Shown: piece by piece, positions 18,104 through 50,694 of the stretch
How positions within the stretch are numbered: the stretch's first letter is position 1
Layout: each line of letters starts with the position of its first letter
Source: an uncultured Bacilli bacterium
GTDB taxonomy: Bacteria > Bacillota_I > Bacilli_A > RF39 > UBA660
Assembly (NCBI GenBank): GCA_947629135.1
Contig: CANRCN010000001.1
Span: 411 to 64,410 of the forward strand
Length of the DNA stretch: 64,000 nucleotides
Direction of reading: 5' to 3'
Notes under the pieces: generated by a model
Database searches by the model: none
What the model was told of the DNA's origin: nothing
Seen by the model: the letters and a program-made list of their open reading frames with translations, nothing else
Position numbers and translations under genes: made by a program

Positions 18104-19162
18104 ATGGAATTTGAAGTAATAGATTTTTTGAGTAAGGATAAATGGCATGATATAGTTAAAGATAAGGAAGTATATTACCAATGGGAATATATTGATGCTT
18201 TTTATCAAAATAAAGAGGGCGAACCATTTTTAGCTTATGCAAAATACAATAACGATTATGTATTCAATGTATATTTTAAAAGAGACATTGCTGATGACAA
18301 ATTATTCAAAAATAAAATAGAAGCAAATAAGCATTTTGATTTAATAACTCCTTATGGCTATGGAGGAATAGACATAATAGGAAATGAAAACCAGGAATTA
18401 TTAGAATTTTATTTTAAGGAATTCGAAAATTATTGTATAGAAAACAATATAGTATCAGAATTTGTGAGATTGAATCCATTAAGTGATAATTATCGTTTTT
18501 ATTCTAATACAGATTATGAACTAATTCAATTTTCTAAAACAATATATATGAGATTAGATAATGAAGAACAAATATGGAACGATATGGAAAGTAGTTGTAG
18601 AAATAAAATTAGAAAAGCTCAAAAAAATGGATTAACTATTAAAACTGGATTTGATAAAGAAATGTTTGAGGAGTTTATCAAAATATATAAAGAAACTATG
18701 AGGAGAGATAATGCAATAGATTATTATTATTTTGGAAACAATTTTTTTGATAGCATATTTGAAAATATGAAAGATTATTCTACAATATATACAGTTTATT
18801 TTGAAAATCAACCAATAAATTCTGTAATGGTAATTTATAACAATGAAAATTGTCATTATCATTTAAGTGGGACTTTATCAGAATATATGAAGTTAGGTTC
18901 TAATAACCTATCTTTATATGAAATTGCCAAAGATTGTTGTAAAAAAGGATATAAAAGGTTTCATTTAGGTGGTGGTTATGGTGGAGATGAGAGTCCATTA
19001 TTAAATTTTAAAAAATCATTTAATAAAAATGGTGAATTAGATTTTTATCTTGCTAAAAAAATCTTCAATAAAGAAATTTATGATAAATTAGTTCTTATAA
19101 GGGAGAAAGAAGAAAATTTTGATAAAAATTCAAATTACTTTCCATTATATAGAAGTATCTAA
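18104..19162 (+). CDS. FemAB-like/GNAT-fold (Acetyltransf_6-type) transferase, putative aminoacyl or acyl transfer to a sugar amine
   Basis: ~350-aa soluble protein with the two-lobed Fem/GNAT-like pattern ('ITPYGYGGI', 'FHLGGGYGG'); located next to the aminotransferase and formyltransferase. Confidence 0.4.
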   Translation: MEFEVIDFLSKDKWHDIVKDKEVYYQWEYIDAFYQNKEGEPFLAYAKYNNDYVFNVYFKRDIADDKLFKNKIEANKHFDLITPYGYGGIDIIGNENQELLEFYFKEFENYCIENNIVSEFVRLNPLSDNYRFYSNTDYELIQFSKTIYMRLDNEEQIWNDMESSCRNKIRKAQKNGLTIKTGFDKEMFEEFIKIYKETMRRDNAIDYYYFGNNFFDSIFENMKDYSTIYTVYFENQPINSVMVIYNNENCHYHLSGTLSEYMKLGSNNLSLYEIAKDCCKKGYKRFHLGGGYGGDESPLLNFKKSFNKNGELDFYLAKKIFNKEIYDKLVLIREKEENFDKNSNYFPLYRSI

Positions 19163-24363: not shown

Positions 24364-25449
24364 ATGTCAAAAAAAATAGGAATACTAACTTTTCATACTA
24401 CAACAAATTATGGAGCTATTTTACAAGCATTTGCATTAGAAAAGAAAATAATTGAACTCGGATATGATTGTGAGATAATAAACTATCATGGATATATAGA
24501 ATATAAAGAGTTTTTTAAGTTTCCAAAGTTTGAAAAAAATATTATAAATTATCTTAAGAATATTAGATATTATTTTATATTTTTAAATAAGAGGAAGCCA
24601 CTTCGAAAATTTATAAATCAAAATATTATTTTATCTGAAAAAGATTATGATAAAAAAAATATTAGTTTATCTAATAATGTATATGATAAGATAATAGTTG
24701 GTAGTGATATGGTATTTAATTTAGTTGTCACTAAATATGATACTACATATCTTTTGGATTTTGCAAACAATTCTAAAAAATTTTCTTATGCTGCCAGTTT
24801 GGGTATTAATAAAATTGATGATAAAGATTTAGATTTATATAAAAATAACTTAAATAGTTTTAGATATCTATCAGTTAGAGAAATACAAACACAAGAATAT
24901 TTAAATACTATTTTGGAAAATGATGTTAATATTGACATAGATCCTACCTTGTTGTATGATAGCACTTTTTGGGAAAAGTTTGAAGAAAAACCTTCTCAAT
25001 TGCTTAATAAAAAATATATTGTATTATATTTTATAGATCCTGAAGGAGTTGAATTAGAAACAGCATTAAAAATTGCAGAAGAAAAAGATTATCAAATTAT
25101 TATTTTAGGAAATTTAAAGAAAAATGGTGAACGTTTTACTTGTATATCTAATGCTTCAATAGGTGAGTTTTTATATTATATACACTATGCTGAATTAGTA
25201 ATTACAGCTTCATATCATGGAATGCTTTTTTCGATGAATTATAATACTAATTTTATGTATTATAATAAATCTAATTCTCCTAGACTTGAAAGTATTGCAA
25301 AACTAACTGATACAATGGATAGAAGATTAACAAAAACTTATATTCCTGAAATAGAATTTGATTTTAACAATACAAATAAATTAATTTCTGATTTACGTAA
25401 TAAATCAATAAAGAATTTAAAAAAAATTTTAGAATCTAATGATAAATAG
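24364..25449 (+). CDS. polysaccharide pyruvyl transferase (CsaB/WcaK family)
   Basis: N-terminus 'KKIGILTFHTTTNYGAILQAFAL' is the hallmark start of PS pyruvyl transferases. Confidence 0.75.
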   Translation: MSKKIGILTFHTTTNYGAILQAFALEKKIIELGYDCEIINYHGYIEYKEFFKFPKFEKNIINYLKNIRYYFIFLNKRKPLRKFINQNIILSEKDYDKKNISLSNNVYDKIIVGSDMVFNLVVTKYDTTYLLDFANNSKKFSYAASLGINKIDDKDLDLYKNNLNSFRYLSVREIQTQEYLNTILENDVNIDIDPTLLYDSTFWEKFEEKPSQLLNKKYIVLYFIDPEGVELETALKIAEEKDYQIIILGNLKKNGERFTCISNASIGEFLYYIHYAELVITASYHGMLFSMNYNTNFMYYNKSNSPRLESIAKLTDTMDRRLTKTYIPEIEFDFNNTNKLISDLRNKSIKNLKKILESNDK

Positions 25450-28291: not shown

Positions 28292-29419
28292 ATGATAAAA
28301 AAAATATTTAAAAATAAAATAATAGATTGTTGTATTATTTTATTGGATTTGGTTATAATTGCTTTAGTATGTTATTTTAGTCATAATAAAATATTTGGTA
28401 TTTCATTAATAATAATTATTCATTTATTCTTGTTAATAATTTTTTTCTTGTTTGTATTAAAATTACCAATAATTAATTATCAAAAAATTCGTACTAAAAA
28501 AATAATAAATGAGAAAAGAAAGCAACTTAAAAATGGTGAGATTTATTCTAAAGAATTAGATATTAAGACTTTTGATGGTTCAGGTTCATTAACACATCCA
28601 TCTGTATTATATTTTGAAAATGGCTTTAATGGTTATAAATTTTGGATGGCTTTTACACCTTACGATAATGAAGATGTAGAATTAGAAAATCCATGTATAG
28701 TTGTTTCAAATGATGGTATTAATTGGAAGATACCAGATAAAATTAAAAATCCGTTATTAAAAATAATAAAAATACGAACACCTCTTAGTTATTATAATGA
28801 TCCATTTCTAATGTATACTGATAGATTAGAATTATGGTATAGATATACAATAGAAGATAAAAAAGTTAAAAACTATATTTATCGTATCTGTTCAAATGAT
28901 GGAATTAATTGGTCTAAACCAGAACTTATGATTAATGATAATAAATCTTATTATATGAGTTTAAGTATAGTTAAGAAAAATAATCAATATTATATGTATT
29001 ATTTTGATATTGATTCCACTTTAAATGTTAGAACTAGTAATGATTTAATTAGTTGGAAAAAAGAATCTAAAATAAATGTAGAAGGTTTTAATGGTAAGTT
29101 TTGGCATGGAGAAGTTAGATTAGTAGAAGATTATTTTGAATTATTGCTTATGGATAGAAGTAATAATTTATATTTTGCCAAATCAAAAGATGGTGAAAAG
29201 TTTAAAAATTTAACAAATTTAAATCTTTATTATACACCTAGAGAATATTTATATAAAAATCAACATTTATATAAATCAAGTTTTGTATATATAGAAAATA
29301 AGATTTATTTATATGTACCATATGTTATAACTAAATTAAATTATTCTATAAAAAGAGTATTTCATAAAAAATGGAGATTAACTATTTCTATATTTTCAAA
29401 AGAAAGAGTTATGAAATAA
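28292..29419 (+). CDS. membrane-anchored BNR/Asp-box repeat beta-propeller protein (possible extracytoplasmic glycoside hydrolase/transglycosylase)
   Basis: Two N-terminal TM helices; four Asp-box-like repeats S-x-D-G-x-x-W ('SNDGINWKIP', 'SNDGINWSKP', 'SNDLISWKKE', 'SKDGEKFKNL'). Confidence 0.4.
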   Translation: MIKKIFKNKIIDCCIILLDLVIIALVCYFSHNKIFGISLIIIIHLFLLIIFFLFVLKLPIINYQKIRTKKIINEKRKQLKNGEIYSKELDIKTFDGSGSLTHPSVLYFENGFNGYKFWMAFTPYDNEDVELENPCIVVSNDGINWKIPDKIKNPLLKIIKIRTPLSYYNDPFLMYTDRLELWYRYTIEDKKVKNYIYRICSNDGINWSKPELMINDNKSYYMSLSIVKKNNQYYMYYFDIDSTLNVRTSNDLISWKKESKINVEGFNGKFWHGEVRLVEDYFELLLMDRSNNLYFAKSKDGEKFKNLTNLNLYYTPREYLYKNQHLYKSSFVYIENKIYLYVPYVITKLNYSIKRVFHKKWRLTISIFSKERVMK

Positions 29420-29443: not shown

Positions 29444-30409
29444 ATGAAAACGTATTTTATAACAGGAGGAGCTGGTTTTATTGGCTCTACATTAACTGAA
29501 AGGTTATTGAAAGAAGGAAATAAAGTAGTTACAATAGATAACTTTTGTAATTTTTATGATCCTAAAATAAAGGAAGGAAATATTAAAGAGTTTTTAAACA
29601 ATCCTAATTATAGGTTATATCGAGGAGATATTAGAAATAGGGAAGATGTAAAGAAAGTCTTTGATGAAAATAAAATAGATGTAGTTATGCATCTTGCAGC
29701 AATGGCAGGTGTTAGACCTTCAATTGAAGATCCACTTTTATATCAAAATGTAAATGGAGTAGGGACAGGCAATATTTTAGAAGAAGCAAAACTTCATGGA
29801 GTAAAGAATCTAGTTATGGCATCATCTAGTAGTGTTTATGGAAATACGAAAGAAGTACCATTCAGAGAAGATATGATAGTTGATTTTGCAATTAGTCCAT
29901 ATGCAGCAACCAAAAAGGCTAATGAAGTAATGGCTCATGTTTATCATAAACTAAATAATATGAATATTATTATGTTAAGATTCTTTACAGTATATGGGCC
30001 AAAGCAAAGACCAGATTTAGCTATTAATAAATTTACAAGATTAATGTTAAATAATGAAGAAATTCCAATGTTTGGAGATGGCACAACCTCAAGAGATTAT
30101 ACTTATGTTGATGATATAGTAGATGGTATTTGTAAATCATGTAATTATGTTATGAATCATGATGATGTATATGAAATAATTAATCTTGGAAGCAATAATC
30201 CAATTAGTTTAAAGGAAATGATTAATATTATAGGTAAAACTTTAGAAGTTGAACCTAAAATTAAACAACTAGGAATGCAACCAGGTGATGTTGATAGAAC
30301 ATATGCTGATATAAGTAAAGCAAAAGAATTATTAGGATATAAACCAAGTATTACTTTTGAAGAAGGTATTAAGAAGTTTATTGACTGGTATAAAGAAAAG
30401 GAGCAGTAA
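29444..30409 (+). CDS. NAD-dependent nucleotide-sugar epimerase/dehydratase (UDP-hexose/HexNAc 4-epimerase-like SDR)
   Basis: 'ITGGAGFIGSTL' Rossmann motif, 'YAATK' catalytic motif. Confidence 0.8.
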   Translation: MKTYFITGGAGFIGSTLTERLLKEGNKVVTIDNFCNFYDPKIKEGNIKEFLNNPNYRLYRGDIRNREDVKKVFDENKIDVVMHLAAMAGVRPSIEDPLLYQNVNGVGTGNILEEAKLHGVKNLVMASSSSVYGNTKEVPFREDMIVDFAISPYAATKKANEVMAHVYHKLNNMNIIMLRFFTVYGPKQRPDLAINKFTRLMLNNEEIPMFGDGTTSRDYTYVDDIVDGICKSCNYVMNHDDVYEIINLGSNNPISLKEMINIIGKTLEVEPKIKQLGMQPGDVDRTYADISKAKELLGYKPSITFEEGIKKFIDWYKEKEQ

Positions 30410-30412
30410 AAG

Positions 30413-31375
30413 ATGAAAAAGACTTCTAAAGTATCTAAAATTAAGATTTTTTTAAAAGAGCCTTCAAAGATAATAAAATATTTAATGAATAAAAATTGTT
30501 TCTGGTTTTTAAGTGATAAAACTTATGTAAAAATGTTGTATAGACTAGAAATGGGGAAAAAGTTAGATTTAACTAGTCCTCGAACATTTAATGAAAAGTT
30601 GCAGTGGTTAAAGTTATATAATAGAAAACCTGAATATACGAATATGGTTGATAAATATGAGGTAAAGAAATATATAGAAAAAGTTATTGGAAAAGAATAT
30701 ATTATTCCAACACTTGGAATATATGATAAATTTGATGATATAGATTTTTCTAAATTACCTAATCAATTTGTAATTAAATGTACTCATGATGGTGGTAGTA
30801 TTTTTATCTGTAAGAATAAAAAAGATTTTGATATTGAATCAGCAAGAAAAAAAATCAATAAAAAATTGAAAATGAATTATTATTATCATGAGAGAGAATG
30901 GCCATATAAAAATGTAAAGCCTAGAATAATAATTGAAAAATATATGGAAGATAAAAATGACAAAGAGTTAAGGGATTATAAATTTTATTGTTTTGATGGA
31001 TATGTAAAAGCTCTATTGGTTGCAACTAATAGACAAAGTGAAACTGAAGAACTTGCTTTTGATTATTTTGATAATAAATATAATCATTTAAAATTAACAA
31101 ATCATTGGCATCCTAATGCAAAGACAATTCCTCATAAACCTAAACAATTTGAAAAAATGGTTGAATTAGCAAGTAAATTATCAAAAGGTTTTCCACATAT
31201 TAGAGTTGATTTCTATGAAGTTAATGGAGAAATTTATTTTGGTGAATTAACGTTCTTTGATATGGGAGGAACGTTAAAAATACATCCAGATGATTGGGAA
31301 TTAGAATGGGGAAATCTAATAAAATTACCAGATAAAAAAATAAATGGAAAGGAAGTTAAATTAAAAAATCTATAA
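30413..31375 (+). CDS. TupA-like ATP-grasp enzyme (teichuronopeptide-type amino acid ligase)
   Basis: Characteristic N-terminal block 'PRTFNEKLQWLKLYNRKPEYTNMVDKYEVKKYI' of the ATPgrasp_TupA family. Confidence 0.7.
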   Translation: MKKTSKVSKIKIFLKEPSKIIKYLMNKNCFWFLSDKTYVKMLYRLEMGKKLDLTSPRTFNEKLQWLKLYNRKPEYTNMVDKYEVKKYIEKVIGKEYIIPTLGIYDKFDDIDFSKLPNQFVIKCTHDGGSIFICKNKKDFDIESARKKINKKLKMNYYYHEREWPYKNVKPRIIIEKYMEDKNDKELRDYKFYCFDGYVKALLVATNRQSETEELAFDYFDNKYNHLKLTNHWHPNAKTIPHKPKQFEKMVELASKLSKGFPHIRVDFYEVNGEIYFGELTFFDMGGTLKIHPDDWELEWGNLIKLPDKKINGKEVKLKNL

Positions 31376-31466
31376 CAAGTATGTTTTTTATTAACAGATG
31401 ATTAGGTGAAACCGAAGAATTAAATAAAAGAATTGTGGATGGTTATGTATAAAAAATAATTATAAC

Positions 31467-31495
31467 TTGACAAAATTGTGATTAATTTTTATAAT
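31467..31495 (+). promoter_or_regulatory. consensus sigma-A promoter inside the capsule locus
   Basis: TTGACA (31467-31472) -17 nt- TATAAT (31490-31495), 35 nt upstream of GTG 31531. Confidence 0.6.
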
Positions 31496-31530
31496 ATAGT
31501 AAATTTTTAATTTAGGATGGAGGAATTATT

Positions 31531-32649
31531 GTGAATAAAATATTTTTATTTATGAATAAAATTTATAAATATCTTTTTGAAAAGTATTTGTTTTATAGTC
31601 GTATTCATGCAGAAAAGAAGAATATAAAAAAGAAGAAAAATTTAATTAATAAAGTAAATTTAACTGATGAACAGGTGTTAGAAGTTGATAAGTTATGGTT
31701 AGAAAATTATGGTAAAAAAATTCCAAAAGATTGGCATAGATTATATACTTCTTATACAGGAAAGTTTGATAAAAACTATTTTCCAGAAATATTATTTACT
31801 GCAAATATACTAAATAAATTAAATCCGAGAGATATAAAGAGGTTTTTTTCCGATAAAACATTAGCTCAATATTTTTATAGTTCACTTGATGAAAAAAAAT
31901 ATAAGGTTGTAAAAAATTATGTGTATAATTGTAATGGCTTTTATTATGATGAAACAGGAGTTATTACTTATGAAAAAACTATTGAAATTTTACAAAATAT
32001 TGGCGAAGTAATTATAAAGCCTACTCTTGATACATGTTCTGGAATTGGAGTAGCATTATTGAATATAAAAGATGGTATAGACATTATTTCAGGAAAAAAT
32101 ATAAAGCAAATTTTTGAAGAATATAATAAAAACTTTGCGATTCAAGAAAAAATAATACAGCATGAAGATTTTGCTAAATTGAATCCTAGTTCTGTTAATA
32201 CGATTAGATTACATACTTATATATGTGATGGTAAGGTGTATTCTACACCATTGTTATTGAGAGTTGGTAGAGCAAATAGTGTTGTTGATAATTTTCATGC
32301 AGGTGGTATTGGTGTAGGGATTACAAAAGATGGCTATTTAATGAGAGAAGGGTTTAAAGAGTATGGTGAAAGTTTTTTAAAACATCCAGATACAGGAATT
32401 GTCTTTGAAAAATATCATTTACCAAAAATACCTGAAATGATTGATTTTACTATTAAATATCATTATAGAATTCCCCATATAGGTGTAATCGCTTGGGATT
32501 TAACAGTTGATAATGATAATCGAATAGTTATAATTGAGACAAATATTTCTTGTCCTGGAATTTGGTTACCACAAATGATAACTGGAGAGTCATTTTTTGG
32601 TGAAAATACTAAAAAAATGATTAGAATGTTAAATGAAAATAAAAAGTAA
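31531..32649 (+). CDS. sugar-transfer-associated ATP-grasp protein (ATPgrasp_ST type)
   Basis: GTG start with GGATGGAGG RBS; ATP-grasp-like core 'GRANSVVDNFHAGGIGVGI'; second ATP-grasp next to the TupA-like gene. Confidence 0.5.
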   Translation: MNKIFLFMNKIYKYLFEKYLFYSRIHAEKKNIKKKKNLINKVNLTDEQVLEVDKLWLENYGKKIPKDWHRLYTSYTGKFDKNYFPEILFTANILNKLNPRDIKRFFSDKTLAQYFYSSLDEKKYKVVKNYVYNCNGFYYDETGVITYEKTIEILQNIGEVIIKPTLDTCSGIGVALLNIKDGIDIISGKNIKQIFEEYNKNFAIQEKIIQHEDFAKLNPSSVNTIRLHTYICDGKVYSTPLLLRVGRANSVVDNFHAGGIGVGITKDGYLMREGFKEYGESFLKHPDTGIVFEKYHLPKIPEMIDFTIKYHYRIPHIGVIAWDLTVDNDNRIVIIETNISCPGIWLPQMITGESFFGENTKKMIRMLNENKK

Positions 32650-32678
32650 TATTCATATAGAAAGAAGGTGTTTATAAT

Positions 32679-33710
32679 ATGATGAATAATAAAAATAAAG
32701 AAATAAAAAATGATGAAATAATATTTATAAGGAAAAATAAATATTATGATAGTGCAAAGCCATTAGTTTCGCTATATACTCCTAATTATAATGGAAGAGA
32801 TACTATTCAAAGAACATTTGACTCAGTAAAAAATCAAGTGTTTAAAAATTTTGAATATATAATAATCGATGATGGTTCTACTGATGGTGTTGAAAAAATA
32901 ATAAATAAATTTATGGATAATGTGGATATACCAGTAATATTTATAAAGAAAAAAAATGGTGGTTTACATACAGTAAGAAATTTAGGTGTTAAATATGCAA
33001 GAGGGAAATATTGTACTTGTGTAGATAGTGATGATGAATTATTACCTGAGGCTTTATCTACATGTGTTGCTGCTTGGGATAGCATACCTAAAAATAAAGT
33101 TCATAGATATCGAGAAGTTGTAGCATTATGTGAAGATGAGAATCACAATATTGTTGGAAGTTATTTTCCAGACAATATAAATTCTGTCGATATGAAAACT
33201 GCACGAAAATTATGTAGAGCTACCAAAGGAGAGCATTTTGGGATGGATATTACAAAGGTAAGAAAAGAAAATTTATTACCTGAGCCTAAAGGTGTTAAAT
33301 ATGTTGTAGAAGATATTGTTTGGCGTAAGCTAGATTTAGAATATGATTCATATTATATTAATAAAGTGCTTAGAGTTTATCATTTAGAAGGCGAAAATCG
33401 TATGAGTAAGAATAAAAACAAAAATATTCAAAATGTTATAAATATGTTATATAATTCACACTACTATTTAAATAATGATAAATTATATATTGATTCTTTT
33501 AAACAAAAAATAGTTATAATTATTAGATATCAAGTTGCTAAAAATATTGTAAATCGTGCAAAAATAAAAGTAGAGTTTGATAATACCATAAAACATATTA
33601 AAAATAAGTTTTTAATATGTATATTATATATTCCATGTTTCTTTTATACGTATATTTACATTAATAAAAATAAGCCAATACGTGAAATTTTAAAACATAA
33701 AAAAGATTAA
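32679..33710 (+). CDS. GT2-family glycosyltransferase
   Basis: 'SLYTPNYNGRDTIQRTFDSVKNQVFKNFEYIIIDDGSTDG' GT-A N-terminal signature with DxD. Confidence 0.75.
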   Translation: MMNNKNKEIKNDEIIFIRKNKYYDSAKPLVSLYTPNYNGRDTIQRTFDSVKNQVFKNFEYIIIDDGSTDGVEKIINKFMDNVDIPVIFIKKKNGGLHTVRNLGVKYARGKYCTCVDSDDELLPEALSTCVAAWDSIPKNKVHRYREVVALCEDENHNIVGSYFPDNINSVDMKTARKLCRATKGEHFGMDITKVRKENLLPEPKGVKYVVEDIVWRKLDLEYDSYYINKVLRVYHLEGENRMSKNKNKNIQNVINMLYNSHYYLNNDKLYIDSFKQKIVIIIRYQVAKNIVNRAKIKVEFDNTIKHIKNKFLICILYIPCFFYTYIYINKNKPIREILKHKKD

Positions 33711-33799
33711 TAAAAATAATATAATATTTTTTACAGAAATATTATCGTATGATTATCAACTAATGAGTTCAAAACTAAAAATGAAAGGAGAATTTTTGT

Positions 33800-34966
33800 A
33801 TGAAAATAGCAGTAGCGGGAACTGGATATGTTGGATTATCAATGGCAACATTATTAAGTGGAAAGAATGAAGTAGTTGCACTTGATATAGTTCCTGAAAA
33901 AGTTGAAATGATTAATAAAAGAATTTCACCAATTAAAGATGAATATATAGAAAGATATTTTAAAGAGAAAAATCTTAATTTAAGAGCAACTTTAGATTAT
34001 AAAGATGCTTTTAATGGTGCAGATTTTATTATAATTAGTACACCAACTAATTATGATGATGAAAAGAATTTCTTTGATACTTCAAGTGTTGAAGATATTA
34101 TAAAAAAAGTAAAAGATATGGGAATTAATGCAACAATGGTTGTAAAATCAACAATACCTGTTGGTTTTATTGAAGATGTGAAGAAAAGGTATGATATAGA
34201 TAATATTATGTTTTCACCAGAGTTTTTAAGAGAAGGACATGCTTTATATGATAATCTATATCCATCTAGAATAATTGTAGGTGAAAAAAGCGATAGGGCT
34301 AAAGTATTTGCTGATTTATTGAAAGATAGTGCTTTAAAATCTGATATAGAGATTAGATTCATGAATCCTACTGAAGCTGAAGCTGTTAAATTATTTGCAA
34401 ATACTTATTTAGCACTTAGAGTATCTTATTTTAATGAATTAGATACTTATGCTGAATTAAAAGGATTAAATACAAAAGATATAATAGAAGGAGTATGTTT
34501 AGATCCAAGAATAGGAGATCATTATAACAATCCATCATTTGGATATGGAGGATATTGTTTACCTAAGGATACTAAACAATTACTTGCTAATTATGATAAT
34601 ATTCCTCAAAATCTTATTTGGGCAATAGTTGAGTCTAATAATACTAGAAAACAACATATTACTAATATGATTATGAAGAGAAAACCTAAAGTTGTTGGAA
34701 TATATAGATTAACTATGAAAACAAATTCTGACAACTTTAGAGCAAGTGCTATTCAAACTATAATAGAGAATTTAAAAGAGCATAATGTCGAAATAGTTAT
34801 ATACGAACCAACAATTGATAAAAAAGAATTTGCTGATTGTAAAGTAGTCAAGGATTTAGATAAGTTTAAAAGTATTAGTGATGTTATAGTAGCTAATAGA
34901 ATTGATGCTAATCTTGAAAATATAAGAGATAAAGTATATACAAGAGATTTATATAGTAGGGATTAA
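33800..34966 (+). CDS. ugd: UDP-glucose 6-dehydrogenase
   Basis: 'MKIAVAGTGYVGLS' NAD-binding start, catalytic Cys region 'GGYCLPKDT'. Confidence 0.9.
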   Translation: MKIAVAGTGYVGLSMATLLSGKNEVVALDIVPEKVEMINKRISPIKDEYIERYFKEKNLNLRATLDYKDAFNGADFIIISTPTNYDDEKNFFDTSSVEDIIKKVKDMGINATMVVKSTIPVGFIEDVKKRYDIDNIMFSPEFLREGHALYDNLYPSRIIVGEKSDRAKVFADLLKDSALKSDIEIRFMNPTEAEAVKLFANTYLALRVSYFNELDTYAELKGLNTKDIIEGVCLDPRIGDHYNNPSFGYGGYCLPKDTKQLLANYDNIPQNLIWAIVESNNTRKQHITNMIMKRKPKVVGIYRLTMKTNSDNFRASAIQTIIENLKEHNVEIVIYEPTIDKKEFADCKVVKDLDKFKSISDVIVANRIDANLENIRDKVYTRDLYSRD

Positions 34967-35130: not shown

Positions 35131-36373
<1,243 letters not shown>

Positions 36374-37521: not shown

Positions 37522-38600
37522 ATGAATAAAAAGTTAACTAATTGTAAACACGGGGGGGGGGTTATTCCACAGAAAAGTTCACTTCTAAAAAATATAAAAA
37601 TTATTGCTTTAAAATTTTAATATCTGGTATTTTTGCTTTTTTGATATTAAATGTTATTTTTAGTTTTTATTTTAATCCTCCAACTTCTGATAAGGAATAT
37701 GAAAAATCTTCTTTTTTAGTAACTCCCTTTAAATATGAACCAATGGAAAGGTTTACATATGCTCTTGAAGGACATGGTCATGGAAGAGTTAATAATGATG
37801 GATATATAAATGTAGAGGATTATGATTCTAATAAAGAAGTTAATATATTAATGGTAGGGTCATCACAGTTTGAAGCTTTTCAAGTTGATATTAAAAATTC
37901 TGTTACCTATAGATTAAATGAACTGTTGAAAAATAAGTTTGTTTATAATATAGGAGTATCAGGTAATGCATTTCCAGAAAGTATAACTAATATAGCCCCT
38001 GCTATTATTAAATATAAACCTACTGATTACATAATTTTAGAAATGTCAGATGTTAAATATTCAGATCAAGAACTTAGCAAAGTTCTCGAAGAAGAAGATA
38101 ATAAAAAAGATTCTGAAAGTTCTTCAGGTTCAAAATCAGTTAAAAATAACAATGTTATTAGAAAATTTTATAGAAATAGTTCATTTTTAAGATTGTTATG
38201 GAGAAAATTAGAAGAGTTAACCGATAATCGAGAGGCAAATTTACCTGAAGCAAAAGAAGAATTTAATGAAAAACTTACAGGAGAAGTTTTAAATAAAATA
38301 CGTACTATAGTTGAAAATAAAGTTAAAGTAATAATTGTATACCATCCTTCTGTTTCTTTAGAATCTGATGGTAATTTGATACTTTTAAATAATGAAAATG
38401 TAGAAAAATTTTCAAAGTTATGTACAGAAAATGGAATATATTTTCTTGATATGAGTGATAGATTTAGTGCAGAATATAAAAAAAATAATATTTTACCATA
38501 TGGATTTAGTAATACATCAGTAGGAAAAGGACATTTAAATAAATACGGACATGAAATGATAGCTGAAGAATTATATAAATTAATCAAGGAGGAAAAGTAG
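37522..38600 (+). pseudogene. DltD/AlgX-like SGNH-fold membrane protein (MBOAT partner) with a poly-G tract between the predicted start codon and the TM anchor; out of frame in this sequence (phase-OFF)
   Basis: ATG 37522 reads MNKKLTNCKHGGG into G10 and stops at 37620; the long ORF (37548 onward, track 37641..38600) is in the +2 frame and encodes the K-rich/TM anchor, 'MVGSSQ' and C-terminal 'GKGHLNKYGHEM' blocks; G11 or G8 would fuse them. Confidence 0.5.
37552..37561. repeat. poly-G homopolymer (G10)
   Basis: direct read; exceptional in ~25% GC DNA. Confidence 0.95.
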
Positions 38601-38601
38601 T

Positions 38602-39993
38602 ATGTCGTTTGCATCAATAGATTTTTTAATATTTTTTATAGTTGTAATATTGGGAACATTAATTATTCAAAAATTTTTCTCTAAAAGAGTGAAAGAAGTA
38701 TTCTTACTTATTGCAAGTTACTTTTTTTATGGATATTGGGATTGGAGATTTTGTTTCCTATTATTATTTGTAACCTTATCTTCGTATTTTACAGCAAAAT
38801 ATAAAGATAAAAAAGGAATATATATAATAGGAATAGTTATACCATTAATTGTACTAGGATTCTTTAAATATTTTAATTTCTTTTTGGAATCAGTATCAAG
38901 TATAATAGGTCATGATTTAGGAATATTAAATATAATTTTACCAGTTGGAATATCATTTTATACATTTCAAGCTTTAAGTTATGTAATTGATGTAAAAAGA
39001 GAAAAGATAGAAGTTGAAGATGACTTTATAAGATTAGCTTTATATTTAAGTTTCTTTCCACAACTTGTTGCGGGACCAATTGTAAGGGCAGCTGATTTCT
39101 TACCTCAATTAAAAGAAGAAAGAAAAGTAAGTTCAGAAAATTTTAAATATGGTATTCAGCTAATGGCATTTGGATTATTCAAGAAGATTGTAATAGCTGA
39201 TCATTTATCAGTTTTTGTAGATGATGTATTTAAAGTACCAGTAGCATTCCATTGGGCAACGATAGTTCTAGCCGTAATTGCTTATTCAATTCAAATATAT
39301 TTTGATTTTTCAGGATATTCTGATATAGCAATTGGATGTGCTAAATGTTTAGGATATGATTTTAATTCTAACTTTAATTTACCATATATTTCTCAAAATG
39401 TAACAGAATTTTGGAGAAGGTGGCATATAAGTCTATCAACATGGTTAAAAGAATATTTATATATTCCTCTAGGAGGAAATAGAAAAGGTAAAGTTAGACA
39501 ATATATCAATTTATTTATAACTATGTTACTTGGTGGATTATGGCATGGAGCAAGTTGGACATTTGTATTTTGGGGTGGTTTAAATGGATTAGCTTTGTGT
39601 ATAGATAAAATGATACCTAAGAAAAAAGAAAAGAATTTATTTGATAAGGTTATTGGTGTAATATTAACTTATACATTTATATGTTTTACATGGATATTCT
39701 TCAGGGCAGATAACTTTACAAATGCATGGGATATAATAAAAGGAATATTTACTTTACAAAAAGGGATAAGTCAACCTTTTGTATGGGCTTTTGTTGCAAT
39801 TATATTATTAGTTATATTTACAATAGGAGCAATTATAAAATCTCATAAGAATAAAGATAAATATGTAGATGGGTATTATCCAATAGTTAATTTAAATACT
39901 GTATTTGGATTAACAATATTCTTTGTTGTAATAGGATTAATTTTTTGTTTAGCTTTTACAGGCGAACAACCATTTGTATATTTTCAATTTTAA
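38602..39993 (+). CDS. MBOAT-family membrane O-acyltransferase (second copy)
   Basis: 'WRRWHISLSTWLKEYLYIPLGGN' MBOAT His motif; start 1 nt after the DltD-like stop. Confidence 0.85.
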   Translation: MSFASIDFLIFFIVVILGTLIIQKFFSKRVKEVFLLIASYFFYGYWDWRFCFLLLFVTLSSYFTAKYKDKKGIYIIGIVIPLIVLGFFKYFNFFLESVSSIIGHDLGILNIILPVGISFYTFQALSYVIDVKREKIEVEDDFIRLALYLSFFPQLVAGPIVRAADFLPQLKEERKVSSENFKYGIQLMAFGLFKKIVIADHLSVFVDDVFKVPVAFHWATIVLAVIAYSIQIYFDFSGYSDIAIGCAKCLGYDFNSNFNLPYISQNVTEFWRRWHISLSTWLKEYLYIPLGGNRKGKVRQYINLFITMLLGGLWHGASWTFVFWGGLNGLALCIDKMIPKKKEKNLFDKVIGVILTYTFICFTWIFFRADNFTNAWDIIKGIFTLQKGISQPFVWAFVAIILLVIFTIGAIIKSHKNKDKYVDGYYPIVNLNTVFGLTIFFVVIGLIFCLAFTGEQPFVYFQF

Positions 39994-40082: not shown

Positions 40083-41099
40083 ATGAAAAAAAAGTTAACA
40101 ATTAGTCAATCTAGGGGGGGGCATAGTAAAAAAGAGTATAAAGGTATTGATATAACAAAATTTATTATGGCAATTCTAGTAATTGCTTGTCATGCAAATT
40201 TATATACCAATTATGATGGAACAATAGGAACAATCTATCTTTTGGTACTTAGTTGTGTTGTTCCATATTTCTTTATAACTAATGGTTTCTTTATGTATAA
40301 AGATGAAGAAACCTTTGAAAATAAACTTTGGGATAATCTAAAAAAAATTATTAAATTATATATAATTTGGAATATAATTTATTTACCTATTAGTATTTAT
40401 GATTATGCTGTAAATGGGTATTCTGTTATAAAAGCAATAATTCTTTATATTCGAGATTTTCTGTTTATAGGTGATCACTTTTTTTCTTGGCCACTTTGGT
40501 ATTTACTAGGATTTATATATGCCTTGATAGCATTAATTATATTAAAAAAATTAAAATTAAATGATAAAAAAATATTTATAATTACGATGTTAACCTATAT
40601 ATTTGCAAATGTAATGGAATATTTAACATCTATTGGTTCTAATAATATTGTTGTAAAATTATTTAGTTATGTCTTTGGTGATGGAAGAGTATTTACTGGA
40701 ATATTTTTAGTTACACTTGGAATACTTATAAAAAAATACAATGATAAAATTAAGATATCTAAAAAAATATTATTATTGCTAATTATAGTGTGCTTTGCAA
40801 TATCAGTTATAATTCCAAATAAGATAAGCGAAGTTGGATTATATATATTTCTATTTTTATTAGTCAAAGAACTTAATAATATTAAATTTAATACAATTAA
40901 CTTTAGAAGGTGTAGTACAATATTTTATTTTGTACACATGATTAATTTATTTATATATATGTTAATTGTTGGGATAGATAATACTTATGGTGTTTATGGG
41001 TTTCTAATAACAATAGTTGCTTGTATGGTAGAATCTATTATTATAATATTTATTCAAAATAAGTGGAATCCAAAAATTTTAAAGGAATTGTTTAATTAA
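40083..41099 (+). CDS. acyltransferase-3 (OatA/WecH-like) family membrane O-acyltransferase with in-frame poly-G (G8) at codons 11-13
   Basis: 'KGIDITKFIMAILVIACHA' acyl_transf_3 N-terminal motif, ~10 TM; G8 at 40114-40121 encodes Arg-Gly-Gly in frame (phase-ON). Confidence 0.6.
   Translation: MKKKLTISQSRGGHSKKEYKGIDITKFIMAILVIACHANLYTNYDGTIGTIYLLVLSCVVPYFFITNGFFMYKDEETFENKLWDNLKKIIKLYIIWNIIYLPISIYDYAVNGYSVIKAIILYIRDFLFIGDHFFSWPLWYLLGFIYALIALIILKKLKLNDKKIFIITMLTYIFANVMEYLTSIGSNNIVVKLFSYVFGDGRVFTGIFLVTLGILIKKYNDKIKISKKILLLLIIVCFAISVIIPNKISEVGLYIFLFLLVKELNNIKFNTINFRRCSTIFYFVHMINLFIYMLIVGIDNTYGVYGFLITIVACMVESIIIIFIQNKWNPKILKELFN
40114..40121. repeat. poly-G homopolymer (G8) within coding sequence
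   Basis: direct read. Confidence 0.95.
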
Positions 41100-41118
41100 G
41101 TTTTGTGTATAAGAAGGA

Positions 41119-42300
41119 GTGATAGAAATGATATATATATATGAAGCAAAAAGAAGTCCAATAGGGAAGTTTAAAAAAGGTTTTATAAATACTGATTGCA
41201 GTATGCTTGGAATGCAAGTTGCTAAAAGTATTATTGAAAATACGAAAATTGATGTAAACAAAATTGATAAAGTTATATTAGGAAATGTTTTATCGGCTGG
41301 TTTAGGACAAAATATTGCAAGACAAATATTAATAAATAGTGGAATACCTGATGATAAAACAGCTTATTCTATTAATATGGTTTGTGGAAGTGGAATGAAA
41401 GCTGTTCATGATGCTTTTAATGATATAAAATTAGGAAATGCTCATTGCATTTTAGCAGGTGGAGTTGAAAATATGAGTATGGCTCCATTATTAAAAGATA
41501 AGTACGATGATAATAAAGAGTTAAAGGATAGTATGTTATATGATGCTTTAACGGATGTATTTTCAAATGAGCATATGGGGATAACGGCTGAGAATGTTGC
41601 AGAAAAATATAATGTAACTAGAGAAGATCAAGATAAATTTGCATATGATTCACAACATAAAGTACAAACGGCAATTGAAAATAAAAAGTTTGATGATGAG
41701 ATAGTTCCAATAAAGACTTTTGAAGGAGAAGTAATAAGTTTAGATGAATTTCCAAGATTTAATACTGAAATGGAAAAACTATCAGCTTTAAAACCAGCTT
41801 TTAAAGAAAATGGAACAGTAACTGCTGGAAATGCTTCTGGAATTAATGATGGCTGTGCTTTGTTATTAATTGGAGATGAAACAATTAGTTTAAAACCTAA
41901 AGCTGAAATTATAGATTTTGCTGAAGCTGGATGTGATCCTAATTATATGGGAATGGGACCATTATATGCAATATCTAAATTATTAGAAAAAAATAATTTA
42001 AATATTAATGATATTGATTTATTTGAAATAAACGAAGCCTTTGCTTCTCAAAGTATAGCAGTTATAAGAGAATTATCTAAAAAATACAATATTAATTTAG
42101 AAGAATTTAACTCTAAAATTAATGTCAATGGTGGAGCAATTGCTTTAGGACACCCAGTTGGTGCATCAGGTGCAAGAATTATAACTACTTTAGTTCATGA
42201 AATGAAAAGAAGAAATTCAAAATATGGTGTAGCTTCACTTTGTATAGGTGGTGGTATGGGAATAGCTGTATTATTAAAAAATATGTGTGAGGAGGATTAA
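41119..42300 (+). CDS. acetyl-CoA C-acetyltransferase (thiolase II, PhaA/ThlA-like)
   Basis: Thiolase signatures: N-terminal 'EAKRSPIGKF', catalytic Cys 'NMVCGSGMKAV', C-terminal 'NVNGGAIALGHPVGASGARI' and 'SLCIGGGMG'. Confidence 0.85.
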   Translation: MIEMIYIYEAKRSPIGKFKKGFINTDCSMLGMQVAKSIIENTKIDVNKIDKVILGNVLSAGLGQNIARQILINSGIPDDKTAYSINMVCGSGMKAVHDAFNDIKLGNAHCILAGGVENMSMAPLLKDKYDDNKELKDSMLYDALTDVFSNEHMGITAENVAEKYNVTREDQDKFAYDSQHKVQTAIENKKFDDEIVPIKTFEGEVISLDEFPRFNTEMEKLSALKPAFKENGTVTAGNASGINDGCALLLIGDETISLKPKAEIIDFAEAGCDPNYMGMGPLYAISKLLEKNNLNINDIDLFEINEAFASQSIAVIRELSKKYNINLEEFNSKINVNGGAIALGHPVGASGARIITTLVHEMKRRNSKYGVASLCIGGGMGIAVLLKNMCEED

Positions 42301-42301
42301 T

Positions 42302-43015
42302 ATGTTAGAAGGAAAAATTGCAATAGTAACTGGAGCATCTCGTGGTATCGGATTAGAAATAGCAAAGTTGTTTACAAAAGAGGGAGCAAAAGTTATTGGT
42401 ACATATAATCATAATAAAACAGATATAGATGGTGTAGATTTTTATAAATTAGATGTTTCTAACAGAGAAGAAGTTAAAACATTTGTAGATACTATTATTA
42501 ACAAGTATAATAAAATAGATATTCTTGTTAATAATGCTGGAATAACAGCTGATGCATTAACTAAAAAAATGTCTGATGAAATGTTTGATAAGGTAATAAA
42601 TACTAATCTTACAGGAACCTATAATATAACTAAACTAATTGGTCCAATTATGCAAGATAATCATAGTGGTAGTATAATTAATATTACATCAATAGTTGGT
42701 ATATATGGAAATATTGGACAAGTAAATTATGCAGCTTCAAAAAGCGGTATTATAGGAATGACCCATACTTGGGCAAAAGAATTTGCTATGAAAGATGGAA
42801 ATGTTAGAGTTAATGCAATAGCACCAGGATATACAATGACAGAGATGCTTAAAACAGTTCCAGAAGAATTATTAGACAAGTTTAAAAGTATGACTTTATT
42901 GAAAAGATTAGCTGAACCTGAAGATATAGCTAATGCAGCATTATTTTTAGCAAGTGACATGGCTAGTTATATAACAGATGAAATATTAAATGTTAATGGT
43001 GGCATGAAATTATAA
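42302..43015 (+). CDS. SDR-family 3-oxoacyl reductase (FabG/PhaB-like acetoacetyl-CoA reductase)
   Basis: 'TGASRGIG' cofactor motif, 'NAG' and 'YAASK' catalytic motif; GAGGAGG RBS 6 nt before ATG 42302. Confidence 0.85.
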   Translation: MLEGKIAIVTGASRGIGLEIAKLFTKEGAKVIGTYNHNKTDIDGVDFYKLDVSNREEVKTFVDTIINKYNKIDILVNNAGITADALTKKMSDEMFDKVINTNLTGTYNITKLIGPIMQDNHSGSIINITSIVGIYGNIGQVNYAASKSGIIGMTHTWAKEFAMKDGNVRVNAIAPGYTMTEMLKTVPEELLDKFKSMTLLKRLAEPEDIANAALFLASDMASYITDEILNVNGGMKL

Positions 43016-44588: not shown

Positions 44589-46625
44589 ATGAAAACTATA
44601 TTAAAAAAAATTGATATCAAATTAGTTATTGCAGTTATTATACATTTTTTAATAACGTTTATTACAGATAGAAATATATTTATTTTTAAAGAAATAAATA
44701 TTACTAATTATATTTTGTGTAAAGTAGTATTGTTAGGATTATTAATATTATTATGGAAGTTTATATTTAAATTAATTCATAAAGATAAGAATGCTGTTGA
44801 TTATTTTAAAAAGTTTTTAATATACATAATTCCAATTTCTATTTTATTAGTTTTGTGTTGGCCAGGTAATTGGTTTGGACCAGATGTTGCTAATTTTTAT
44901 CAATTTGCAATTCGTGGCAATTTTGTATATTATCTTAATTACTTATCATCAGTTTTTTATATTATAGGTTTAATGTTCTTTCCAGTTCCAAGTGGTCCTA
45001 TTATTCTTTTAGCTATTTTATTTGGAATTGTATTTTCTTATTTAACTAAAAATCTATATGATATTTATAAAAGTAAACTTGTTTATTTAATGTTAATTCC
45101 ATTCTTTATGTTAAATACTTTATTTTATACTTTTTATGCTAATAGACCAATTATTTTTGGAATTATTTATTTATTATTAATTAGTATTATTTTACTTGAT
45201 AAAATTAAAAATAATAAATTAACTAATAAAAAAATTTTAGCTTTAATTATTTTAACAGGAGTCGCAGCCTATTGGAGAACTGAGAGTATTTATTTAATTC
45301 TTGCTATTCCTTTATTTATTTTTATAGTCTATAAATTAAAAGTAAATTTTAAAAACATTGCTAAGATCTTTGGTTTTACTATTTTAAGTTTTCTAGCTAT
45401 ATCATTACCTCAAAAAATATATGAATATAATTTTCATGATTATCCATTATCATCACGTAATGCAGCTATATATATTTTACCTTTATCTTATATGTTAACT
45501 AAAGATTTAAAGGGGAAAAATTTAGAAAGTAATTTAGCTAAAATTGATAAAGTTATAGGAATAGAAGAAATGAAAAAATATCCATCCTATAATGATACTT
45601 ATTGTATTTGGGAAAGTAATTGTAAAAAATTAGATTATACTAAAGAAGAATATAAAGAGTTTCAAAAAGCTTATTTTGATGTAATAATTAATAATTTTCC
45701 TGAATATTTAAAAACAAGAATGTTAACATTTGTAGGTGCAAGTGGTCTTTATAATAATACTTTTACAACTAAGAATTTATATAATGAAAATATAGAGACT
45801 TTATTTGAAAGAAAAGATACTAAACCATTTATTAATTATAAAATAAGGAAAGTTGTTTATTCAATTTTAGAAGGAAGAATTTCTGATAAAGGAAGATCTA
45901 TTCTTCCATATAATCTAACTAATAATTTAATAATACCTTTGTTATTTATTGGAATATTATTTATATATTCAATTGTAAAAAAGAAGTTATTTTACTTTTT
46001 GTTATCTGGGATGTTGATTGGTCATACTACGATAGTTTTCTTTACAGCTCCTGCTAACTATGCAATGTATTATTTTAATATTTATTTAACTGGATTAGTA
46101 GTTGGAGTTATGTTTATAATTGATTATATATATTATAAAAAGAATAAAAAATGTTATTTATTAGATATAAAGAAAAAAAATAAAAAGAAAGTAAAAAGGG
46201 AGGAATCAAAGATAAAAAAATTAATAGTTCAAGCTTTTAAGTTCTTTGGAATATCTGGAATAGGATGGTTAATTGATTTTACAACTTATACAGTTATGAC
46301 AAGTTTACTAAAAATAGATATCATGATTGCTAATATTATAAGTTCATTTTTAGGAATTACTTTTGTCTATTTAGTTTCAACGAGAAAATTATTTCAGAAT
46401 AATAGTAAATATAATTTAAAAGTAAAATATATTGCTTATATTTTATATCAAGTTGTTTTTGTATTATTAGTTTCTTATATAATGACATTTTTAAAAGAAT
46501 ACTTATTAGGATTTGATGTTAAATTAATAAGTGATTATGTCAATATAATAACTAAAATTGTAGTAACTCCATTTACAATGGTAATAAATTTTATAGTTAT
46601 GAAAAATTTAATAGAGAGGATTTAA
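44589..46625 (+). CDS. large polytopic GT-C-like membrane protein (GtrC/YfhO-like by context) fused to a C-terminal GtrA-family domain
   Basis: ~14 TM helices; first 520 aa paralogous to 50747..52330 (identical blocks 'WPGNWFGPDVANFY', 'PVPSGPIILLAILFGIVFSYLTKNLYDIYKSKLVYLMLIPFFMLNTLFYTFYANRPII'); last ~140 aa have 4 TM with GtrA-like pattern; a GT2 gene follows immediately. Confidence 0.5.
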   Translation: MKTILKKIDIKLVIAVIIHFLITFITDRNIFIFKEINITNYILCKVVLLGLLILLWKFIFKLIHKDKNAVDYFKKFLIYIIPISILLVLCWPGNWFGPDVANFYQFAIRGNFVYYLNYLSSVFYIIGLMFFPVPSGPIILLAILFGIVFSYLTKNLYDIYKSKLVYLMLIPFFMLNTLFYTFYANRPIIFGIIYLLLISIILLDKIKNNKLTNKKILALIILTGVAAYWRTESIYLILAIPLFIFIVYKLKVNFKNIAKIFGFTILSFLAISLPQKIYEYNFHDYPLSSRNAAIYILPLSYMLTKDLKGKNLESNLAKIDKVIGIEEMKKYPSYNDTYCIWESNCKKLDYTKEEYKEFQKAYFDVIINNFPEYLKTRMLTFVGASGLYNNTFTTKNLYNENIETLFERKDTKPFINYKIRKVVYSILEGRISDKGRSILPYNLTNNLIIPLLFIGILFIYSIVKKKLFYFLLSGMLIGHTTIVFFTAPANYAMYYFNIYLTGLVVGVMFIIDYIYYKKNKKCYLLDIKKKNKKKVKREESKIKKLIVQAFKFFGISGIGWLIDFTTYTVMTSLLKIDIMIANIISSFLGITFVYLVSTRKLFQNNSKYNLKVKYIAYILYQVVFVLLVSYIMTFLKEYLLGFDVKLISDYVNIITKIVVTPFTMVINFIVMKNLIERI

Positions 46626-46629
46626 TTGT

Positions 46630-47439
46630 ATGGAAAAGATAATGGTTTTTATACCAATGTATAATTGTGAAAAACAAATAGTTAGAGTTTTAAAGCAATT
46701 TGATAAAGAGGTTTTAAAATATATTGAAGAAATTGTAATTATTAATAATAGAAGTACTGATAATGGAGAAGAAGCAGTTATTAATTTTAGTAAAGAAAAT
46801 AAAATAGATAAGAAACTAACTTTACTTAGAAATGATGAAAATTATAATTTAGGTGGATCTCACAAAGTAGCTTTTGATTATGCAATTAAGAATAACTATG
46901 ATTATTTAATTGTTTTACATGGTGATGATCAAGGAAGTATTCATGATTTGTTACCATATCTTAAAAATAAAGAATATGAAAATTATGATTCTTTACTTGG
47001 TTCAAGATTTTTAAAAGAATCTAAACTAGAAGGATATTCTAAGTTTAGAACTTTTGGAAACATTGTTTATAATTTTGCTTTTTCCATATTACTTGGGAAT
47101 AAAGTAAAAGATTTAGGTGCAGGATTAAATATGTATAAAGTTGAATCTTTAAAAAATAAATATTATATTAAATATCCTGATAGATTAACTTTTAATTGTT
47201 ATATGTTACTTGCTATTAAATCTTATAAACAAAATGTAAAATATTTTCCAATAACATGGAGAGAAGATGATCAAGTTTCTAATGTTAAAATGGTATCACA
47301 AGCTTTTAAAACAATAATGATACCAATTAAATATTTTTTTAGAAGAAGTAAGTATTTAGAAAGTGAGCATAGAGATAAGATAATAGAAGATTATACTGCA
47401 AGTTGTATATATAGTATTGGAGGTAAAAATGGAAAATAA
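46630..47439 (+). CDS. GT2-family glycosyltransferase, GtrB/DPM1-like without C-terminal TM helices
   Basis: 'MVFIPMYNCEKQIVRVLKQF' GT-A start, 'LHGDDQGS' DxD-type motif. Confidence 0.65.
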   Translation: MEKIMVFIPMYNCEKQIVRVLKQFDKEVLKYIEEIVIINNRSTDNGEEAVINFSKENKIDKKLTLLRNDENYNLGGSHKVAFDYAIKNNYDYLIVLHGDDQGSIHDLLPYLKNKEYENYDSLLGSRFLKESKLEGYSKFRTFGNIVYNFAFSILLGNKVKDLGAGLNMYKVESLKNKYYIKYPDRLTFNCYMLLAIKSYKQNVKYFPITWREDDQVSNVKMVSQAFKTIMIPIKYFFRRSKYLESEHRDKIIEDYTASCIYSIGGKNGK

Positions 47440-50615: not shown

Positions 50616-50694
50616 AAATAGATATTAGAAAGATATAAAAATTAACAATGTTCTTTTTTAGAATTTGTTAATTTTTTTATTTAAAAAAGATTAG

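Follow-up and report, generated by a model that had tools for sequence, protein, structure and literature searches.

Two ATP-grasp ligase genes in a putative acidic-sugar module of a Wzy-dependent capsule locus from an uncultured Bacilli bacterium

The locus and its genes

The window analysed here, i.e. the whole 64-kb stretch of contig CANRCN010000001.1 (GenBank assembly GCA_947629135.1, uncultured Bacilli bacterium), is very AT-rich (GC 0.20-0.30) and carries a capsule locus in which two neighbouring genes encode ATP-grasp ligases, a TupA-like protein and a member of the ATPgrasp_ST family (ST in the following). Together with an epimerase-like gene, a glycosyltransferase gene of family GT2 and a gene for UDP-glucose 6-dehydrogenase (Ugd) they form a block that we regard, with moderate confidence in the explanation as a whole, as the acidic-sugar module of this Wzy-dependent capsule locus. 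By its sequence the TupA-like protein is a stand-alone Gram-positive member of a known enzyme kind, namely a predicted uronate amidoligase, and the amide decoration of a hexuronic acid in this capsule appears well supported by the homology and gene context presented below. The ST protein is probably an accessory ligase for a second step. The following features are considered:

11622-43015, + strand: Wzy-dependent Gram-positive capsule locus (Pfam assignments)
29444-30409, + strand: short-chain dehydrogenase/reductase (SDR), UDP-glucuronate 4-epimerase-like (PF01370/PF16363)
30413-31375, + strand: TupA-like ATP-grasp ligase, predicted amidoligase, 320 aa (PF14305)
31467-31495, + strand: sigma-70-type promoter-like element (12/12 consensus match)
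31531-32649, + strand: ATPgrasp_ST ("sugar-transfer associated") ligase, 372 aa (PF14397)
32679-33710, + strand: GT2 glycosyltransferase, 30 nt downstream of the ST gene (PF00535, E 5e-28)
33800-34966, + strand: Ugd (NF011631, TIGR03026, three UDPG_MGDP_dh domains)

The last four genes of this list had already been placed by a first-pass annotation of the same DNA, and their positions and common strand are confirmed here; the SDR gene directly upstream was absent from that account. According to Pfam the capsule locus starts with a CpsC-like Wzz protein, a CpsD-like kinase and a CpsB phosphatase, and possesses an amino-sugar block of PglF-like dehydratase, DegT aminotransferase and small PglC-like phosphoglycosyl transferase (PGT), besides a formyltransferase-like protein, a FemAB-like protein and a hexapeptide transferase. 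Further genes encode four GT4 enzymes, a Wzy-like membrane protein, a pyruvyl transferase and Wzx, and the remaining members are a FrhB-like gene, a nitroreductase gene, an MBOAT gene with its partner, Acyl_transf_3, and a thiolase with another SDR. The complement of glycosyltransferases thus comprises four GT4 and one GT2 in addition to the initiating PglC-like transferase. The nearest relatives are metagenome-assembled genomes of "uncultured Clostridia" from rabbit gut, with others from human gut, and one related locus (L018 in our numbering) has the same overall make-up as that of the window.

Fold and catalytic residues of the two ligases

Searches of the PDB with sequences and profiles of both ligases gave nothing useful and revealed no solved structure for either family, so that both were placed among solved structures by fold comparison only. 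Foldseek retrieved for both proteins LysX/ArgX, D-Ala-D-Ala ligases (Ddl), PsnB, PurK and L-amino-acid ligases as top matches, with probability 1.00, E about 1e-6 and a template modelling (TM) score of about 0.4 at 10-16% identity. The underlying AlphaFold2 (AF2) models are confident: the TupA-like model has a predicted local distance difference test (pLDDT) score of 91.3 with ATP-grasp ligases as best PDB folds, and the ST model one of 94.6 with ArgX, Ddl, PurK and L-amino-acid ligases as best folds.

At the level of families the assignments are clear. The TupA-like protein matches PF14305 (ATPgrasp_TupA) with E 6.9e-72 and 242 bits against a cut-off of 25, and the match spans the whole profile (residues 61-304 against positions 1-241 of 241). 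The motif TFNEKLQWLKLY (residues 58-69) is part of the best conserved stretch at the N-terminus in this family; E61, K62, W65 and K67 are invariant among 35 TupA-like homologues, as are K122, R161-E162, E175, D188-K190, R264, D266 and E278. The ST protein matches PF14397 (ATPgrasp_ST) with E 1.7e-47 and 162 bits against a cut-off of 31, and in 34 ST sequences K163, Q205, R226, D253-N254, G258-G259, D323, E336 and N338 are invariant. The presumed ATP-binding lysine and Mg-binding residues are K122, E175, D266 and E278 in the TupA-like protein and K163, Q205/E206, D323, E336 and N338 in ST, with roles taken by analogy with Ddl and RimK. The first-pass annotation had tied its ATP-grasp assignment to an alignment-based check of the motifs; the catalytic residues are conserved in these alignments and both proteins can be regarded as intact ATP-grasp ligases.

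The N-termini of both models are all-helical and each bears a net charge of +10 over its first 45 residues, which would be compatible with peripheral membrane binding. A paralogous origin of ST and TupA was considered and rejected, as there is no detectable sequence similarity between them. This lack of similarity suggests that the two enzymes act on chemically different substrates.

The TupA-like ligase and its probable uronic acid substrate

The only characterised TupA-like member is the C-terminal domain of Campylobacter jejuni Cj1438 (Cj1438C) (PMC11800397), in which the amidoligase is fused to a GT2 domain (PMC11800379). In vitro and with MgATP, Cj1438C amidates the C6 carboxylate of a chain-terminal glucuronic acid (GlcA) with (S)-serinol phosphate or ethanolamine phosphate (PMC11800397). 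UDP-GlcA is no substrate (PMC11800397, PMC11800379), and therefore the decoration takes place after glycosyl transfer. In BLASTP the window protein shows 30% identity to Cj1438C (E 4e-38, query residues 52-300; Cj1438C sequence from the supplement of PMC11800397), and the two have the blocks TFNEKL, LPNxFVxKxxHD, REWxYK, YKF and RVDxY...GELTF in common.

Genes for a predicted supply of uronic acids lie on both sides of the ligase pair. Ugd aligns with positions 1-388 of 388 of the UDP-glucose 6-dehydrogenase model NF011631 (E 8.5e-171) with a score of 568 bits, which is under the equivalog cut-off of 757, and it passes TIGR03026 (326 bits against a cut-off of 190). All three domains (PF03721, PF00984, PF03720) and the catalytic-cysteine motif GGYCLPKD are present. 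The epimerase-like SDR ends 3 nt before the start of the TupA-like gene, whose ribosome-binding site GGAG is situated within the 3' end of the SDR gene, i.e. the two are translationally coupled. Its closest solved relatives are a Klebsiella epimerase (5u4q, E 1e-75) and 6zl6 (E 3e-57), which we take to be the UDP-GlcA 4-epimerase of Bacillus cereus (BcUGAepi), followed by MoeE5 (E 5e-43) and the UDP-GlcNAc epimerases WbgU and WbpP (about 1e-45). The motifs S-x(n)-YxxxK (as YAATK) and FTVYGPxxRPD (as FTVYGPKQRPD) are kept in the alignment, and the enzyme would make UDP-galacturonic acid (UDP-GalA) from UDP-GlcA. The order with the epimerase gene immediately before a TupA-like gene is observed in the window and in three other loci, L002 (84% and 71% identity), L007 and L018. 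The GT2 enzyme has weak N-terminal similarity to TuaG, WcaA and PglI.

In a wider sample of 16 TupA-seeded genome loci, recovered with the window protein, 9 carry a 6-dehydrogenase for nucleoside diphosphate (NDP)-sugars, a UDP-GlcA-epimerase-like gene or both at a distance of up to 10 kb; the others include several short contigs. A TupA-family gene was described also from a ugd-containing capsular polysaccharide cluster of Vibrio (PMC11382117). The earlier proposal of a uronic-acid ligase persists for a full-length homologue of Cj1438C that is flanked by uronate genes, but not with GlcA as its sole target: the epimerase gene next to the TupA-like gene suggests that GalA is no less likely to be the target than GlcA.

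Identity of the amine and nature of the polymer

The amine that would be coupled to the uronic acid can be approached by the enzymes that the locus lacks. The donors of the Campylobacter system come from pyridoxal phosphate (PLP) enzymes encoded in the cluster, and a HAD phosphatase later removes the phosphate from the product. Among the open reading frames (ORFs) of the window locus there is no PLP decarboxylase or aminotransferase for such donors, no HAD phosphatase and no racemase, and donor enzymes and phosphatase are absent in the flanks too; the only aminotransferase of the locus is the DegT sugar aminotransferase beside the PglF-like gene. Because amine-donor genes are missing in the locus, an amino acid is favoured, and the amine may be a ready-made metabolite such as a common amino acid, a weak suggestion drawn from absence. 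Such structures exist: GalA carries alanine or serine in the extracellular polysaccharide of Vibrio alginolyticus (PMC4663550), and GalA-lysine is found in Proteus O-antigens, for which WemR is cited as TupA-like (PMC13419641). In the literature on ATP-grasp enzymes and uronic-acid amides in O-antigens no gene-level data were found.

The window encodes further genes of possible relevance for amino acids. Behind the PglF/PglE/PglC-like genes there is one formyltransferase-like gene (17379-18086) and then one of FemAB/Acetyltransf_6 type (18104-19162), whose products may bring about a tRNA-dependent aminoacylation or an acylation of the 4-amino sugar.

The first-pass annotation had proposed amino-acid amidation of uronic acid within a glucuronan-type, teichuronopeptide-like polymer. 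From this proposal the uronate amide is retained, while its amino-acid part is a weak suggestion from the lack of donor genes. The proposed polymer type is not supported, since this is a Wzy/Wzx heteropolysaccharide locus with four GT4 and one GT2 enzymes and without genes for poly-gamma-glutamate. As judged from the gene content, the polymer appears to be a multi-sugar heteropolysaccharide, polymerised by Wzy, pyruvylated and acylated, and containing a 4-amino-trideoxyhexose.

The ATPgrasp_ST ligase and its coupling to TupA

PF14397 is a large family (1,923 clusters at 50% identity with E<=1e-30 to the family profile), and the sole named sequence relative of the window protein is the RimK-related glutamate-ligase model TIGR02291 with a weak match (E 1e-5), which is compatible with a second ligation and proves nothing. 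Gene context is more informative. ST loci were collected from a protein collection and from a metagenome scan with a 12-sequence alignment, annotated with purpose-built hidden Markov models and dereplicated at 85% identity to 23 clusters. A TupA-like gene occurs in the available flank of 19 of the 23, in 13 of them directly adjacent and on the same strand, and each of the four clusters without TupA lacks sequence on at least one side. Three extra ST contexts (L095, L097, L098) all contain TupA. The converse does not hold, as ST was found in none of the 16 TupA-seeded loci. This asymmetric and often adjacent coupling suggests joint action of the two enzymes, or action of ST at a later step than TupA.

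Several individual loci show peculiar arrangements of the two genes. Two consecutive TupA-ST pairs are present in L067 (8998-14136), and three TupA genes accompany one ST in L098 (7002-13602). In L035 (6866-11038), represented by about 40 near-identical contigs from human-gut metagenomes, a PGA_cap (CapA-like) gene stands directly before TupA-TupA-ST, with three Acyl_transf_3 genes upstream of PGA_cap and no NDP-sugar dehydrogenase at a distance of up to 10 kb. The genes of L035, a locus unrelated to that of the window, may serve a decoration of the oligo-glutamyl type. Apart from ST-ST(-ST) tandems (P0286, P0336, P0390) no multidomain ST proteins were found.

In an unsupported neighbour-joining (NJ) tree most ST-adjacent TupAs, together with that of the window, fall in one broad clade, which also contains scattered members without ST. 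We tried to define the ST-adjacent TupAs as a clean clade and rejected this, as only a tendency is visible in that tree.

Between the two ligase genes of the window the first-pass annotation had pointed to a consensus promoter. The element itself is confirmed: TTGACA and TATAAT with a 17-nt spacer at 31467-31495 match the consensus in 12 of 12 positions, located in the 155-nt gap between the ligase genes and 36 nt 5' of the GTG start of the ST gene, which is preceded by GGAGG 7 nt upstream. It is the sole perfect match in the window, where 0.07 are expected; at least one was obtained in 7 of 100 shuffles. Its role is less certain. Taken as a whole, promoter-like sites are hardly more numerous in the window than in shuffles (65 found against 61 expected), and before the orthologous gene of L018 the element is not conserved. 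Therefore it is a plausible, not a demonstrated, promoter, and plausibly an internal one.

Proposed pathway and alternative explanations

The pathway that we propose would begin with Ugd, which by homology should form UDP-GlcA, part of which the SDR would turn into UDP-GalA. A glycosyltransferase, possibly the adjacent GT2, would then add the hexuronic acid to an undecaprenyl-diphosphate-linked repeat unit at the cytoplasmic face. Judged by its homology to Cj1438C, the TupA-like ligase would activate the C6 carboxylate of this lipid-linked GalA or GlcA with ATP, giving an acyl-phosphate which a free amine, most likely a common amino acid although the indications for this are weak, would attack to yield the uronamide. 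Judging from gene coupling only, ST would most likely be an accessory enzyme of this decoration that activates the free carboxylate of this first amino acid and adds a second amine or amino acid, and the outcome would be a short peptide-like side chain. The decorated unit would finally be flipped by Wzx and polymerised by Wzy. The far-reaching form of this proposal, in which ST is a dedicated second-step partner of TupA that extends the first amino acid and in which many gut Firmicute capsules carry peptide side chains, is tentative and we consider it rather doubtful at the moment. What is modestly new here is the TupA-ST module itself as a testable hypothesis for an uncharacterised family.

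Several observations weigh against the pathway or parts of it. Searches of the literature and of the PDB revealed no paper, solved structure or characterised member for PF14397. In L002 and L003, whose TupAs are closest to that of the window, ST is absent and therefore dispensable for that TupA clade. Of 18 ST locus representatives only 11 have an NDP-sugar 6-dehydrogenase at a distance of up to 10 kb, and several of the dehydrogenase-less loci carry DegT/PglF genes. The link between TupA and uronate genes is a descriptive one without statistical weight. Moreover, given the 4-amino-sugar pathway of the window and its FemAB-like gene, amino acids could enter the polymer by a second route, which would confound tests based on composition only.

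The coupling of ST to TupA could also reflect two independent amidations, in which the TupA-like enzyme and ST would act on different carboxylates (for instance those of GalA and of GlcA, or those of a uronic acid and of the pyruvate ketal), each with its own amine and with no sequential building of a peptide. The gene content of the locus should allow the synthesis of UDP-GlcA as well as UDP-GalA and includes a pyruvyl transferase gene; loci with two or three TupA paralogues are common, each often beside its own glycosyltransferase; and L027 and L078, two ST loci without TupA in the available flank, both have an epimerase together with a 6-dehydrogenase and would fit as well. This explanation leaves open why ST is rarely seen without TupA while TupA is commonly alone, and why the two are so frequently in direct adjacency, twice in L067; the lack of sequence similarity between them, with its suggestion of chemically different substrates, also has to be accommodated. 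We consider it unlikely. The presence of PglF-like, DegT and PglC-like genes in the window raises the alternative of an N-acylation by ST, or by both ligases, in which a carboxylic or amino acid is joined to the 4-amino group of a PglF/PglE-derived trideoxyhexosamine. A precedent is the ATP-grasp enzyme Pyl of B. cereus, which is reported to ligate 2-oxoglutarate to a UDP-4-amino sugar (Hwang et al. 2014 via PMC11257628 and PMC8987622). Amino-sugar genes (DegT/PglF) were counted in 7 of 14 ST locus representatives, nearly as often as uronic-acid genes (8 of 14), and in L078 the ST gene directly follows a PGT - formyltransferase-like - DegT series. Yet at least six ST loci (L018, L020, L023, L051/L095, L067, L098) contain Ugd and epimerase with no DegT within 10 kb, the ST gene of the window is 13 kb away from the amino-sugar genes and lies between TupA and GT2/Ugd, and the 4-amino group has candidate acylating enzymes already (formyltransferase-like, FemAB-like, hexapeptide transferase), which makes such a role of ST quite improbable.

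The remaining two alternatives concern the TupA-like reaction itself. Instead of an amino acid the amine might be ethanolamine phosphate or serinol phosphate with later dephosphorylation, and this is the sole activity demonstrated in the TupA-like family (PMC11800397); equivalents of Cj1436 and Cj1437 (PLP) or of Cj1435 (HAD phosphatase) are missing among the ORFs of locus and flanks, identity to Cj1438C is only 30%, and the Campylobacter type of amine is accordingly given little chance. It was also weighed whether the ligases are passengers of the locus that do not act on the capsule, for instance in a protein modification as proposed for the Klebsiella TupA-like protein CfmP, which acts independently of surface polysaccharides and does not need them for its activity (PMC13419641). 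In the window both genes run in the same direction as the rest of the operon, with translational coupling of the TupA gene to that of the epimerase, and in all loci examined homologues of both families are situated inside polysaccharide loci. A passenger role is thus very hard to believe.

Other genes of the window

Several further observations were made in and around the capsule locus. A FrhB/FdhB-like gene (35131-36373) contains 17 AT dinucleotides in a row (35481-35514), which split it into overlapping frames (35131-35526 and 35474-36373); the counterpart in L018 is intact with 403 aa. The AT run could be a phase-variable repeat, a mark of a pseudogene or an assembly slip. This family often partners pyruvyl transferases, and that of the window is encoded at 24364-25449. 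A thiolase and an acetoacetyl-CoA-reductase-like SDR adjoin Acyl_transf_3 (40083-43015), and the same trio is found in L018 (16160-19072) between the TupA-like gene and Ugd, which suggests a locus-encoded supply of 3-hydroxybutyryl-CoA for capsule acylation. Directly before the MBOAT gene (38602-39993) a family-less protein of 319 aa is encoded (region 37641-39993), and the two look like a partner pair of the AlgJ/PatB/DltD type for O-acylation. A second MBOAT gene is located at 7168-8448 on the minus strand. The product of 28292-29419 (375 aa) has a hydrophobic N-terminal segment and no Pfam or NCBIfam match; it repeats the Asp-box-like motifs SNDGINW / SxDxxxW and may be a beta-propeller with a glycan-modifying or hydrolase-like function within the capsule operon.

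In the locus flanks matches to a sporulation-type deacetylase and to SipW-like proteins were obtained, which along with the nearest relatives would indicate a gut Firmicute of Clostridia type. Downstream of the capsule locus a second glycan-related cluster (44589-53338) encodes a 678-aa protein with a C-terminal GtrA-like domain, a GT2 enzyme, a nucleotidyl transferase, a protein with an LPG_synthase_TM domain and a protein like the membrane domain of VanT. At the end of the window (59102-62756) an AIPR-family protein (abortive-infection-like, weak MzaE match) and a large serine recombinase (CcrB/XisF-like) may mark the edge of a mobile element or of a defence island.

Comparison with known systems

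Regarding fold, both ligases are most similar to RimK/LysX/ArgX and to D-Ala-D-Ala ligases, which provide the best matches for both models and which use the acyl-phosphate mechanism to attach an amino acid to a carboxylate. Unlike these enzymes with their classical pre-ATP-grasp domain, the ST and TupA-like models have all-helical N-terminal domains. Pyl from the UDP-yelosamine pathway of B. cereus (Hwang et al. 2014 via PMC11257628) resembles the window in that an ATP-grasp enzyme of a surface-glycan operon is encoded beside genes for a PglF-like dehydratase, for an aminotransferase and for a small PGT and that an amide is formed on a sugar. It differs in that the sugar gives the amine, a small acid is activated and the nucleotide sugar is the substrate.

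TupA of Bacillus halodurans C-125 is the founding member of PF14305 and is associated with teichuronopeptide, a complex of polyglucuronate and poly-gamma-glutamate and thus a glucuronic-acid wall polymer that carries amino acids. We know of no enzymatic characterisation of this protein. It has PF14305 in common with the window protein, whereas the window is devoid of PGA_cap or CapB-type genes and would direct the synthesis of a heteropolysaccharide that is built by multiple glycosyltransferases and polymerised by Wzy. The amidated uronic acids of Vibrio and Proteus represent the chemistry predicted here, and in Vibrio a TupA-family gene occurs with ugd (PMC11382117). These systems, compared here by their published descriptions, belong to other phyla with other assembly contexts and their link between gene and structure is biochemically unproven.

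The closest functional reference is the HS:2 capsule of C. jejuni NCTC 11168 with Cj1438C. Both systems are capsule loci with Ugd and GT2, and both have TupA-like ATP-grasp enzymes. In contrast with the Campylobacter fusion, the TupA-like protein of the window (320 aa) is stand-alone and the GT2 is encoded two genes downstream. The C. jejuni pathway depends on an ABC transporter and poly-Kdo while that of the window is Wzy-dependent and Gram-positive; enzymes for serinol phosphate or ethanolamine phosphate donors and a HAD phosphatase are missing in the locus of the window and its flanks, and an epimerase-like gene is coupled to the ligase gene. Furthermore, the TupA-like protein of the window is partnered by an ST ligase, which is not mentioned in the HS:2 descriptions consulted (PMC11800397, PMC11800379).

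Amidation removes or repositions the negative charge of uronic acids and creates epitopes, and it therefore affects serotype, recognition by phages and antibodies and the physical properties of the capsule. As the enzymology of uronate amidation is known from one Campylobacter enzyme, a stand-alone Gram-positive orthologue would broaden the picture with maybe GalA as target, a lipid-linked substrate and probably an amino acid as amine. The coupling of ST to TupA offers a concrete hypothesis for a family of about 1,900 clusters at 50% identity. If ST indeed were the second-step partner, short peptide side chains made independently of the ribosome on acidic sugars would have to be expected in many gut Firmicute capsules.

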